Of a stretch of 53,034 nucleotides of DNA, positions 47,687 to 49,957 are shown piece by piece (the stretch's first letter is position 1; every line of letters begins with the position of its first letter). The stretch is from Candidatus Moranbacteria bacterium GW2011_GWA2_39_41 (GTDB taxonomy: Bacteria > Patescibacteriota > Minisyncoccia > Moranbacterales > UBA2206): positions 1-53,034 of the forward strand of contig LBXA01000002.1 in NCBI GenBank assembly GCA_000995125.1, given 5' to 3'. The position numbers and the translations under genes were made by a program. Under the pieces are notes generated by a model. The model ran no database searches and was not told where the DNA came from. It was given only the letters and a program-made list of their open reading frames with translations.

Positions 47687-49957
47687 ATGGATAAATTAAA
47701 GGTAAAAAATAGAATAGAAAAGCTTTCGGCTGAGATTAATCGATTGCGTTTTGAATATCATGTTTTGGATAAGGCAGATGTGACGGATGAAGTGTATTCG
47801 TCACTGATGGAAGAATTGCGCAGTTTGGAAGAGCAATTTCCTGATTTGAAATTGGTGGACTCACCGACCCAAAAAATTGGTGGCAGGTCCTTGGAAAAGT
47901 TTCAAAAAGTGAAGCATGCTGTCAGGCAGTGGTCATTTGATGACATTTTTAGTTTTGCAGGTTTGCAGAGGTGGGAGGAGAAAATTGAAAGGATGGTAGA
48001 AAAAATTGGTGAGTTAGAGGGGACTAAGTCCCCAAAAGGGGACTTAGTCCCCAAAGCATTGGAATATGTTTGTGAGATTAAGATTGATGGATTGAAGATT
48101 ATTTTGACCTATGAGAATGGAATCTATGTGCGCGGGGCAACGCGGGGTGATGGCGTGATTGGTGAGGATGTGACGGAGAATTTGAAAACAATTTATAGCA
48201 TTCCATTGAAGCTCAAACAAAATGTTTCAGGAGTTTTTGTGGGTGAATGTTGGTTGAGCAAAAAAGAATTGCAAAGAATTAATGTTGAACGAGTGAAAAA
48301 TGGCGAAGCAATGTTCGCCAATTCGAGAAATGCCGCGGCTGGATCAATTCGTCAGTTAGATTCAAGAGTAGCAGCTTCACGCCGACTGGATTGTTTTATT
48401 TATGATATTGACCAGCTGAGGCTGGAAAAACCAAAAACCAAAAACCAAACACCAGATACCTTGCCTACCGGCAGGCAGGAATCTCAAATTTCATCCACCG
48501 TGGCGGACAAATCTCAAAATTTTTCTTTTCCGAAAACTCAGATGGAGGAGTTGAAGTTGTTGAAAGAATTGGGATTCAATGTAAATTTGGATGCCAAATT
48601 GTGCAAGAGTGTGGCTGAAATTGAAAGCTATTATCAAAGTTGGATTGGTAAAAAAGATTCACAAAATTATGGCATTGATGGCGTGGTTATCAAATTGAAT
48701 TCACGGGCATTGCAAGAAGCTTTGGGCTATACCGGCAAATCACCAAGATGGGGAGTAGCCTACAAATTTCCAGCCGAAAAAGTGACGACAGTAGTGGAAG
48801 ATATCTCGGTGCAAGTTGGTCGTACGGGTGCCTTGACACCGGTGGCACATTTGCGACCTGTGTCAGTGGCAGGCTCAACGGTTTCGCGCGCGACGTTGCA
48901 CAATGAAGATGAAATAAAAAGATTGGACATAAAGATTGGCGACACAGTGGTGATTCAAAAGGCGGGTGATGTGATTCCAGAAGTGGTAGAGGTGATTGTG
49001 AGTTTGCGCACAGGCAAGGAAAAAAAATTCAAGATGCCGGAAGTTTGTCCAATTTGCGGCTGGCCGGTGAGAAGAGAAATTGTGAAAGTTGCACCCTCAT
49101 CCGTCCTTCGGGCACCTTCTCCCTCAAGGGAGAAGAAGAAAGGGGATGACACTTTGTCGGCGGCACATTATTGTACTAACAAAAATTGTTTTGCCGTGGA
49201 AACAGAAAAGCTGATTCATTTTGTTTCGAAAAAAGGTTTCAATATTGATGGCCTAGGAGAAAGCATTGTAGAACAATTAATGACCGAGGGCTTGGTGGCT
49301 GATTTTTCAGATATTTTTGAATTGACGATGGGCGATTTGAAGCCCTTGGAACGATTTGCCGAAAAGTCAGCGCAGAATTTGATTGAAGCCATCGCGGCAG
49401 CTAAAAAAATAACTATTGAGAAATTTATTTTTGCTTTGGGAATTCGACATGTGGGTGAGGAGACAGCTGTTTTGATTGCATCCGAAATCCGAAACAAATT
49501 CAAAAATATAAATCTGGAAATTCAAAACCTGCAGGATATTATTAATAATTTTCCAAAAATTACAGTTGAAGATTGGAGGAGTATTAAGGGCATTGGCGAG
49601 AAGTCGGCCGAAAGTTTGGTGACTTGGTTTTCTGATAAAAATAATCTAGAAATTTTAGAGAGGATGAGAGTGGCGAGGGTTGAAGTTTTGCTGGGTGAAA
49701 ATGGGGTAGCAGGAGGTGAAGGGGGGGAAGGAAAATTGAAAGGAAAGATTGTGGTTTTGACGGGCGAGCTCGAAGCCTTTACAAGAGACGAGGCAAAAGA
49801 TATTATTAGGCGAGAGGGAGGCAGTGTTTCTTCTTCAGTCAGCAAGAACACTAGTTTTGTTTTAGCGGGAGAAAATCCGGGATCCAAATATCAAAAGGCT
49901 TTGACGCTGGGAGTTCGGATTGTTGGAGAAGAAGAGTTTGGGGAGATGATAAAATAG
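47687..49957 (+). CDS. ligA: NAD-dependent DNA ligase
   Basis: Adenylation motif [12 protein letters not shown] fold, Zn finger CPICG...YCTNKNC, HhH region, and a BRCT domain ([10 protein letters not shown]). It carries several in-frame repeat-encoded inserts. Confidence 0.95.
48019..48052. repeat. perfect 15-bp inverted repeat GGGGACTAAGTCCCC-AAAA-GGGGACTTAGTCCCC inside ligA
   Basis: Read directly from the sequence. It encodes [13 protein letters not shown]. Confidence 0.9.
48426..48479. repeat. (AAAAACC)3 + AAACACC heptamer array plus copy C of the 20-nt palindrome, inside ligA
   Basis: AAAAACCAAAAACCAAAAACCAAACACC is followed by CTTGCCTACCGGCAGGCAGG (48460-48479). Together they encode [18 protein letters not shown]. 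Confidence 0.9.

Follow-up and report, generated by a model that had tools for sequence, protein, structure and literature searches.

The hairpin within the ligA gene of the window (the whole stretch of 53,034 nt analysed here) is an insert, and the same sequence is found in many unrelated genes and between genes. It is probably a REPIN-like element that owes its mobility to a RAYT-like transposase and that permissive protein loops can tolerate. The element would belong to a Moranbacteria palindromic repeat family built like a REPIN, with two inverted 15-nt REP-like units lying 4-5 nt apart. Its most likely mobiliser, judging from association with repeat copies, would be a RAYT-like Y1 (HUH) tyrosine transposase acting on the single-stranded hairpin form during replication. 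One copy would have landed in the LigA loop between helix 90-106 and the strand with the catalytic lysine, and may have survived because the insert length is a multiple of three, because it is read in the sole stop-free frame and because this loop tolerates extra residues. A tolerated in-frame insertion of this kind would leave LigA with a disordered decoration of 11-13 residues, presumably neutral for the enzyme.

The ligA hairpin and its protein context

The features of the ligA locus are as follows.

47687..49957, forward strand: ligA, NAD-dependent DNA ligase, 756 aa from the ATG at 47687
48017..48055, forward strand: likely extent of the insertion, 13 codons, matching the 13-codon length of the x-GTKSPxGDLVP-K insertion in atpG
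48019..48033, forward strand: unit 1, the left arm, GGGGACTAAGTCCCC, an odd palindrome with centre CTAAG
48034..48037, forward strand: loop or spacer AAAA, which in other copies of the family is 4-5 nt long, A/T-rich and variable
48038..48052, forward strand: unit 2, the right arm, GGGGACTTAGTCCCC, the exact reverse complement of unit 1
48080..48091, forward strand: KIDG adenylation motif with the catalytic K132, on the beta-strand after the insert-bearing loop

The preliminary description had reported a perfect 15-bp inverted repeat with a 4-nt loop at 48019-48052, GGGGACTAAGTCCCC-AAAA-GGGGACTTAGTCCCC, and both sequence and coordinates are exact. It had missed that both 15-mers are odd palindromes in their own right (GGGGACT-W-AGTCCCC), so that the hairpin consists of two copies of one palindromic unit, repeated with a 19-nt period and matching at 14 of 15 positions as a direct repeat and at all 15 as an inverted repeat. 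With up to two mismatches allowed, the two arms are the only matches in the window, far beyond chance (0 matches in 100 dinucleotide-preserving shuffles). A composition unlike the surroundings had also been claimed and was confirmed, the GC content being 59% at the hairpin vs. about 36-42% around it. The folding energies, proposed earlier as a check, were well beyond those of shuffles: in a 62-nt context the RNA forms the 15-bp stem at -32.8 kcal/mol (z = -5.5, with 0 of 200 shuffles as good), and the DNA folds at -19 kcal/mol (z = -6.5). Within the coding regions of the window this is by far the strongest perfect hairpin, the runner-up reaching -18 kcal/mol. Rfam covariance models run over the window gave nothing at the hairpin; only the tmRNA and three tRNAs reached the gathering score.

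The ligA product carries the adenylation, OB, HhH and BRCT domains of Pfam, and its first possible start is a GTG at 47669, upstream of the ATG. As had been noted, the hairpin is translated in frame shortly before the KxDG motif: the encoded segment spans residues E111 to 123 and lies 10 codons upstream of the KIDG lysine, and the insertion is free of stops in only one of its three frames, the one used. In the AlphaFold model, the insert lies between H90-106 and E127-133, and residues 111-121 have pLDDT values below 50 and no secondary structure, so the peptide is modelled as a disordered loop.

The claim that the element is an insert was borne out by comparison with other LigA proteins. In 120 Moranbacteria orthologs the RQWSF-to-KIDG distance has a mode of 42 and a minimum of 40 residues, about a third of them having the minimal loop without insert, whereas in the window LigA it is 52, an excess exactly equal to the hairpin-encoded peptide. 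The nearest relatives, 76-78% identical, lack the hairpin-encoded sequence. The loop is hypervariable and is taken by other hairpin families in relatives. When ligA DNA was read from the contigs encoding chosen homologs, a hairpin was present at this same loop in 7 of 10 orthologous Moranbacteria loci, and these hairpins represent four or more unrelated sequence families. Two of the families recur at another LigA site in other genomes: the GTCGAGGACGGTCCTCGAC family, which L082 and L083 have at the same loop, is found in L103 within the zinc-finger insert, and the site-1 element of L085 and the site-3 element of L104 have a 19-nt loop in common (17/19), their arms differing at 6 positions that are all compensated. 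The ligA hairpins of L085 and L086 begin with GTAG, unlike the unit in the window. At the other LigA site of L081 and L103, one arm is the conserved coding sequence for AVLIA and the other its inverted copy in a variable region, which looks like a local inverted duplication. No further copies of the ortholog hairpin arms were detected in their own 5-22-kb ligA loci. A LigA-alignment search of genome contigs yielded, among the matches listed (at least 600), mostly distant phyla with identities up to 60%. A protein-only test for peptides compatible with palindromes of 12 and 15 nt was non-discriminating, with a match density at the variable site similar to that elsewhere; only with arms of 18 nt or more was it informative, and such candidates were verified at the DNA level. 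The recurrence of different hairpins at one LigA loop could reflect targeting or a selected function, not mere tolerance.

Copies in other genes and association with a transposase gene

An exact-match scan of JGI metagenomes detected the hairpin doublet in 14 contigs, a copy count that is a lower bound since only exact doublets were sought. The copies lie in at least eight other genes and in intergenic DNA, most of those found being intragenic.

ATP synthase beta (atpD), in frame: contig L102
ATP synthase gamma (atpG), in frame: contigs L090 and L099
DNA polymerase I (polA), in frame: contig L096
Class-V aminotransferase, NifS-like, in frame: contigs L089 and L098
GT1 glycosyltransferase, in frame: contig L094
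NDP-forming acyl-CoA synthetase, in frame: contig L095
169-aa ORF, in frame: contig L092
Intergenic copies: contigs L093, L097 and L091

The spacer of the metagenome copies is variable (4-5 nt of A/T), and nearly all keep a perfect 15-bp stem. In-frame copies read as GTKSPxGDLVP or RGLSPxxGDLVP, and the host proteins of some contigs are annotated as Candidatus Moranbacteria, Moraniibacteriota or Parcubacteria. An empty site was provided by the atpG gene of L102, which lacks exactly the 39 nt (TTGGGGACTAAGTCCCCAATTGGGGACTTAGTCCCCAAG) that the atpG genes of L090 and L099 carry. Overall identity between these last two genes is 82%, falling to 65% at third codon positions, whereas their elements share 38 of 39 nt and are thus far better kept than the host gene. 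As the reading frame of the doublet varies between hosts and copies also occur outside genes, selection is, judged from the sequences, acting on the element's DNA rather than on the peptide. The proposal that a REP-like element had landed in frame in an essential gene is therefore supported by the copies in other genes and by the empty atpG site; the element recurs on other contigs, and its residues are not conserved in LigA orthologs.

The density of copies is low compared to classical REPs, with one in the 53-kb window and three in 20.7 kb of contig L105, all of these near a transposase gene. The doublet was absent from viral contigs. A contig of 63% GC (L101) has a similar unit in tandem direct copies, arranged differently; these are unrelated or uncertain and were left uncounted.

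The window holds no RAYT-like gene, and the association with a transposase was seen in another contig (L093/L105). A 221-aa ORF on this contig contains NPNHYHLIL as its HUH motif; the ORF scores 29 bits for Pfam Y1_Tnp (threshold 23), and its best NCBIfam match is REP_Tyr_transpos at 28-32 bits, far under the 80-bit cutoff. One exact doublet is located 10 nt past the transposase stop, another in frame within the gene just before the HUH motif, and a third about 640 nt upstream, on the far side of a 129-aa ORF; a different CTAAG-centred palindrome directly precedes the start codon. Homologs of the transposase in L085, L107 and L004 are each flanked by a palindromic unit of their own, making four independent RAYT-like loci with their own palindrome nearby, three of which have it on either side of the gene, and exactly the element of the window is present at one of the four. 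The family has at least 1769 members, some of them named 'REP element-mobilizing transposase RayT' by JGI, and a sequence search of the PDB gave no meaningful match. A conserved motif of the transposase, FL(R/K)L(N/S)(L/F)(S/R), is the read-out of CTAAGGTTGAACCTTAG or CTAAAGTTGAGCTTTAG at a fixed position. By its sequence, the transposase would be RAYT-like but of a distinct clade.

Alternative origins and significance of the element

If a mobile palindrome spread by other means, for instance with the help of another enzyme or through interstrain gene conversion or homologous recombination, its association with the transposase would be incidental. The low copy number and the absence of a RAYT-like gene from the window would fit with this, and for CGTC-type REPs and Rickettsia RPEs no dedicated transposase is known either (PMC3733652); but a palindrome of their own at four independent RAYT-like loci, one of them with exactly the element of the window, makes it unlikely. 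It is also quite unlikely that the ligA hairpin is a selected structure, in mRNA or DNA, immediately before the active-site codons, its sequence being free to turn over, with roles such as translational pausing or co-translational folding, RNase III control of the ligase level or a cruciform. The recurrence of unrelated hairpins at the same loop in 7 of the 10 orthologous loci, the arms that remain perfectly complementary despite sequence differences and the conservation of the atpG element well above neutral sites speak for such a function. However, the nearest relatives (L086, L087 and L103) have no hairpin at this loop, about a third of the orthologs have no insert, and any element propagating in hairpin form should have perfect arms. 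Furthermore, nothing about these elements is specific to ligA, since they are also found in numerous other genes, in intergenic DNA and at other positions in LigA.

A non-mobile origin in place, by template switching or inverted duplication during replication in a fast-evolving loop, was initially favoured by the lack of extra copies in the 5-22-kb ortholog loci and was overturned by the metagenome scan. The uniqueness of the element within the window and the AVLIA arm with its inverted copy are in line with it, but at least eight other genes carry the identical 34-nt doublet, which is also found near the transposase gene, and it is not credible that the same 30 specified bases arose locally and independently, leaving this origin very improbable. 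Finally, a chimeric inverted repeat made by the assembler has a negligible likelihood. Perfect palindromes are a known artefact at contig ends, but this one is internal to its contig and in frame, and the element is found on 14 other contigs from many samples. Identical LigA proteins were called on six contigs from independent assemblies, which argues that the hairpin is not an assembly artefact. The contig of the window belongs to assembly ERZ978281 of run SRR1658344 (Rifle groundwater, PRJNA268031).

The preferred reading, a REPIN-like element moved by a RAYT-like transposase, would extend REPIN/RAYT-type systems to a phylum of ultra-small genomes with scarce intergenic space, and no report of such a system in CPR/Patescibacteria was found in the searchable literature. 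The proteins of these bacteria are full of unexplained lineage-specific inserts, and hairpin repeats apparently moved by RAYT-like enzymes and read through in permissive enzyme loops would be a concrete source of some of them. This matters for annotation, because the hairpin-encoded peptides are not functional motifs, and for the alignment and phylogeny of marker genes, and the naturally occurring insertions would chart which loops of LigA, Pol I and ATP synthase tolerate extra residues. A more speculative extension, to which we give a small chance, is that, in Moranbacteria, palindromes and RAYT-like transposase together constitute a system of long standing and vertical inheritance whose role goes beyond hitch-hiking, the hairpins maybe being targeted to, or selected in, loops of essential genes. 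If so, the translated recognition hairpin of the transposase gene itself could seed new REP families or autoregulate, and hairpins in the loops of ligA, polA, atpD and atpG could control expression or replication, or supply surface-loop diversity.

Comparison with known systems

The element had been called REP/MITE-like, and only the first half of this label stood. MITEs (e.g. Correia, Nezha) measure 70-300 nt or more and have terminal inverted repeats and target-site duplications. Like them, the element is a small non-autonomous repeat that is read through when within genes. In contrast, it has no terminal inverted repeats around a longer body, the whole element being one hairpin, and neither a target-site duplication nor a conserved target was evident in the flanks of 12 copies. 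With IS200/IS605, it shares the transposase superfamily (Pfam PF01797) and single-strand hairpins as recognition elements. In IS200/IS605 the hairpins mark the ends of a unit, differ between the two ends and travel with the transposase gene, whereas the Moranbacteria hairpin occurs alone at many loci, with similar copies on both sides of the transposase gene.

Rickettsia palindromic elements (RPE), reportedly the subject of work by Ogata et al. in 2000 and by Claverie and Ogata in 2003, offer a likeness in behaviour: a bacterium with a small genome carries palindromic repeats in frame in numerous genes that are unrelated and often essential, and the repeats add surface peptide segments without destroying function. 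RPEs are about 100-150 nt long, not known outside Rickettsia and without a known transposase. The window element differs in length (34-39 nt), in its Moranbacteria host and in its unrelated sequence, so that only the in-frame insertion behaviour is common.

REP elements with RAYT transposases are said to have been described by Nunvar in 2010. As in REP/REPIN systems, a short palindromic unit, here of 15 nt, is present at many loci (14 metagenome contigs and the window), two inverted units make a longer hairpin, and copies of the repeat lie close to a Y1/HUH transposase gene (L093/L105). REP and REPIN elements and their RAYT transposases have been treated elsewhere (Bertels and Rainey, 2011, PMC3116915; Di Nocera, 2013, PMC3733652). 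The Moranbacteria unit differs from REPs in being only 15 nt long and a perfect odd palindrome; a GTAG or CGTC tag is absent from the GGGGACTWAGTCCCC unit and its immediate flanks, where the central CTAAG/CTTAG is conserved instead. Its copies are low in density and mostly intragenic rather than extragenic, the host belongs to the Patescibacteria/CPR lineage, and the transposase, of a putatively distinct clade, misses the NCBIfam RAYT cutoff and bears its own in-frame copy just before the HUH motif. The location within ligA has its precedent in REP dimers lying in frame within genes for replication and repair, among them a DNA ligase gene of Opitutus terrae and the gene for DNA polymerase I (Di Nocera, 2013, PMC3733652), and in-frame palindromic repeats in repair genes are known since the Rickettsia RPEs and that survey.

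A palindromic doublet in a variable loop of LigA

The hairpin and its host gene were read from the window sequence as follows.

47669/47687-49957, + strand: ligA, NAD-dependent DNA ligase of 756 aa with adenylation, OB, HhH and BRCT domains
48019-48033, + strand: left unit GGGGACTAAGTCCCC
Between 48019-48033 and 48038-48052, + strand: spacer AAAA
48038-48052, + strand: right unit GGGGACTTAGTCCCC

The perfect 15-bp inverted repeat with a 4-nt loop claimed in the preliminary description was borne out by this reading and by a repeat finder, which gave arms of 15 nt, 100% complementary and 4 nt apart. 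Each 15-mer is in addition an odd palindrome, GGGGACT-W-AGTCCCC, a feature absent from that description; therefore, the structure is one palindromic unit present twice, at a period of 19 nt. When the 53,034 bases were searched with up to two mismatches, the two ligA units were the sole matches, and no match was obtained in 100 dinucleotide-preserving shuffles of the window (2 mismatches allowed). Rfam contained no family matching the doublet. Calculation of the folding energy, as had been suggested, gave -32.8 kcal/mol for RNA in a 62-nt context with a 15-bp stem (shuffle mean -15.7, z -5.5; none of 200 shuffles folded as well) and -19 kcal/mol (z -6.5) for DNA. The composition also differs from the surroundings as described, with 59% GC vs. 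approximately 36-42% in the gene region around. In a window-wide scan for perfect inverted repeats (arms ≥9, loop 3-30), the ligA element was the strongest hairpin of the coding regions (runner-up, -18 kcal/mol), and only an intergenic gatC-gatA element was stronger.

This gatC-gatA spacer (50265-50343) holds a 79-nt near-perfect hairpin with arms of 25-29 nt and -44 kcal/mol, whose arm TGTCATTCCAGTGAAAACGGGAATC resembles TGTCATTCCCGCGAAAGCGGGAATC of contigs L009 (Patescibacteria) and L018 (Caldatribacteriota), suggesting a member of a widespread palindromic repeat family. By Rfam, genes for one tmRNA and three tRNAs are also present in the window, in regions 35903-36317 (-) and 52500-52874 (+), and between the last two tRNAs (52677-52793) an A/T-rich imperfect inverted repeat with 56-nt arms and heptamer-like repeats.

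The hairpin is translated in frame from E111 to residue 123 and followed by the invariant K132-I-D-G at 48080, in agreement with the proposed reading upstream of the KxDG adenylation motif. The closest database relatives of this protein are LigA of Candidatus Moranbacteria and Parcubacteria (63-78% identity). None of the closest contains the 11-residue hairpin-encoded peptide, and the nearest carry a different sequence at the loop, such as EGGQGGKGG. RQWSF and KIDG are most commonly 42 residues apart in a set of 120 Moranbacteria LigA proteins (minimum 40, maximum 96), compared to 52 in the window, and half of the set (60 proteins) has ≥8 extra residues; the flanks of the insert site are nearly invariant on both sides. 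This alignment of orthologs, proposed earlier as a check, identifies the hairpin as inserted sequence within a hypervariable loop.

In an AlphaFold2 model of medium confidence (30-sequence alignment, mean pLDDT 71), residues 111-121 have pLDDT <50 and no secondary structure, and sit between helix 90-106 and the catalytic-lysine strand 127-133. Further low-confidence stretches of the model coincide with other variable inserts of these ligases.

48428-48520, residues ~248-278: lineage-specific insert, modelled as disordered
49085-49150, residues 467-488: lineage-specific insert, modelled as disordered
49700-49726, residues 672-680: lineage-specific insert, modelled as disordered

The sites of these three inserts are occupied by perfect hairpins in relatives L081, L085, L086, L103 and L104. 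Perfect inverted repeats of ≥10 nt are absent from the window inserts, which may therefore be elements that have decayed.

Hairpins in the ligA genes of relatives

Ten ligA loci were read as DNA, the window and nine orthologous loci from other database contigs. At the loop of the window hairpin, the following were found.

L081: perfect 50-nt palindrome with halves GCAAATTTAGGCTCTAAGAGCCCAA and TTGGGCTCTTAGAGCCTAAATTTGC
L082: GTCGAGGACGGTCCTCGACT-CGAT-AGTCGAGGACCGTCCTCGAC
L083: two copies of the L082 unit
L085: GTAGCGACCGAACCGCT-19 nt-AGCGGTTCGGTCGCTAC
L104: 12-bp hairpin
L084: decayed hairpin
L086, L087 and L103: no hairpin

Two or three further variable sites of LigA carry hairpins as well (following FIYDID, within the zinc-finger insert and in the HhH region), and two hairpin families were found at differing sites between genomes. 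L103 carries the L082/L083 unit in its zinc-finger insert; the L085 element at the first site and the zinc-finger element of L104 have a common 19-nt loop (17/19 identical) and 17-nt arms with 6 differing positions, all compensated. L086 has a GTAG-tagged dimer at the zinc-finger insert. Such a distribution is what would be expected if several families of mobile hairpins had repeatedly sampled a small number of permissive loops.

In the closest relatives, L086, L087 and L103, the hairpin is replaced by a purine-rich insert (GGAGGTCAAGGTGGTAAAGGAGGT) encoding EGGQGGKGG(L/V)G, which is also found at the loop in many LigA homologs (P0002-P0021); it has no secondary structure and carries Gly-Gly-X repeats and Shine-Dalgarno-like GGAGG runs. 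A 13-bp hairpin, CCGTATTAATTGC-NNGG-GCAATTAATACGG, was detected in the HhH region of ligA at L081:2572-2601 and L103:3975-4004. Its left arm is formed by the conserved AVLIA codons and its right arm opens the variable insert, which gives this hairpin the appearance of a local inverted duplication, not of an imported element.

Copies in other genes and an associated transposase

JGI metagenome contigs were scanned for exact matches to GGGGACTWAGTCCCC-N(0-12)-GGGGACT, revealing the doublet in at least 14 contigs, a lower bound because the scan needs exact matches; in viral contigs the doublet was not found. The spacer of the copies is variable, A/T-rich and 4-5 nt long. Host ORFs were named by Pfam.

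Locations of doublet copies in metagenome contigs
In frame, ATP synthase beta: L102
In frame, ATP synthase gamma: L090, L099
In frame, DNA polymerase I: L096, read as RGLSPHKGDLVP
In frame, class-V aminotransferase (NifS/IscS type): L089, L098
In frame, GT1 glycosyltransferase: L094
In frame, NDP-forming acyl-CoA synthetase: L095
In frame, 169-aa ORF: L092
Outside long ORFs: L093 (two copies), L097
Array at contig end, 27-nt period: L091:1-130

Exact look-ups returned 'Candidatus Moranbacteria bacterium' for the Pol I host, 'Candidatus Moraniibacteriota bacterium' for the AtpG host and 'Parcubacteria group bacterium' for the transposase host. The L091 array has units GGGCTAAGCCCC, GGGGACTAAGTCCCC and GGGGACTTAGTCCCC, with TTAAAACCCCAA after every one of them, and by its sequence is a clustered form of the doublet family, variant unit included.

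When the spacer has 4 nt, one frame in three is stop-free, giving GTKSPxGDLVP, and when it has 5 nt, up to two are open; all genic copies use an open frame. As the frames differ between hosts and some copies are untranslated, it is the DNA that is conserved and not a peptide motif. An empty site was found in atpG, which could be aligned over its entire span in L090, L099 and L102: L102 lacks exactly the 13 codons TTG GGG ACT AAG TCC CCA ATT GGG GAC TTA GTC CCC AAG that L090 and L099 have, and the ligA insert is likewise approximately 13 codons long. Between L090 and L099, atpG identity is 82% overall and 65% at third codon positions, whereas the element differs at just 1 of 39 positions; therefore, the element either is kept by DNA-level selection, or was homogenised or recently re-inserted.

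A 221-aa ORF (MRKTEFANGEYYHIYNRG...NPNHYHLILKQ...SAYVNKNN...) in L093 and in L105, a longer copy of that locus, matched Pfam Y1_Tnp (IS200-like) with 29 bits (cutoff 23). Its top NCBIfam match was 'REP-associated tyrosine transposase', with 28 bits, far under the 80-bit equivalog cutoff, and we refer to it as RAYT-like. The exact window doublet is associated with this gene at the following positions.

10 nt 3' of the transposase stop codon
In frame within the gene, directly 5' of the HUH motif
~640 nt 5' of the gene, past a 129-aa ORF

The start codon is abutted on its 5' side by a CTAAG-centred palindrome of another sequence, TTTCCAAGAGCT-A-AGCTCTTGGAAA. No further doublet copies were detected in the other ~19 kb of L105, and no RAYT-like homolog in the window. 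Homologs that share 40-49% identity with the protein of L093 or L085 show a similar layout with their own palindromes.

L085, directly 5' of ligA: CTAAGGTTGAACCTTAG before, within and after the gene
L107: TTCCTAAAG-TTGAG-CTTTAGGAA before (inverted), within and after the gene
L004 (Vogelbacteria): two flanking palindromes of 29-31 nt

The family has at least 1769 protein-database members, mostly unnamed or 'transposase'; some were named 'REP element-mobilizing transposase RayT' by JGI, and several named members belong to Moranbacteria or Parcubacteria.

RAYT-like genes (L085:9220-9989, L107:1027-1756 and L093:11151-12538, the latter equal to L105:9323-10710) hold the internal copy of their flanking palindrome at a fixed position directly 5' of the HUH motif. 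This copy encodes a family-wide conserved peptide, FLRLNLS / FLKLSFR, in L085 and L107, and in L093 its place is taken by the window's GGGG...CCCC doublet; this internal palindrome could be an autoregulatory site or a source of new REP families. The RAYT-like gene at L085:9305-10001 adjoins ligA on the upstream side, and several homologs lie on contigs of 8364, 3712, 9716 and 12145 nt, sizes matching LigA-homolog contigs, suggesting that RAYT and ligA are conserved neighbours within one subclade of Moranbacteria. Within the window, an intergenic hairpin of ~125 nt (9503-9629, -57.8 kcal/mol) between two small genes has as its core a CTAAG-centred palindrome doublet, CTAAAGCTAAGCTTT ... AAAGCTTAGCTTTAG (units 9542-9556 and 9580-9594), that resembles the CTAAAG...CTTTAG units flanking the L107 gene and may represent a second REPIN-like family in this genome.

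Origin of the doublet and comparison with known systems

The window LigA protein was found identical on six contigs from separate groundwater assemblies; therefore, the palindrome is not an assembly artefact, which is likewise ruled out by the metagenome copies of the doublet. Its local origin by template switching was ruled out by the copies in 14 metagenome contigs. That hairpins recur at one loop would fit a hairpin selected in ligA, but hairpin-free close relatives, the large number of orthologs whose loop is minimal and the occurrence of the same elements at other sites and in other genes weaken this explanation.

IS608 TnpA and E. coli TnpA-REP are characterised Y1/HUH transposases. By analogy with them, the RAYT-like enzyme would act at the replication fork, where it would recognise the hairpin in its folded single-stranded form and then move the doublet by cut-and-paste or by copying. 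A genic insertion would survive only with a length multiple of three, an open frame and a tolerant surface loop, and would presumably be neutral. Less probably, the doublet may spread without a RAYT-like enzyme.

REPs, REPINs and RAYTs are already well described (PMC3116915, PMC3733652). REPs and REP dimers within genes, many of them for replication or repair and including Opitutus terrae DNA ligase and DNA polymerase I, were reported by Di Nocera et al. (2013; PMC3733652), who also discussed in-frame Rickettsia RPEs. Text searches of the literature for RAYT or REP with Patescibacteria, Parcubacteria or CPR returned nothing relevant. Compared to the known REP/RAYT systems, the host phylum appears to be new. 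In contrast to known REPs, the unit is very short, perfect and untagged with a CTAAG core, and the family has a low copy density and a mainly genic location; in contrast to known RAYTs, the transposase belongs to a distinct clade bearing its own hairpin in frame. The repeated filling of the same LigA loops by different hairpin families would also be a new feature.
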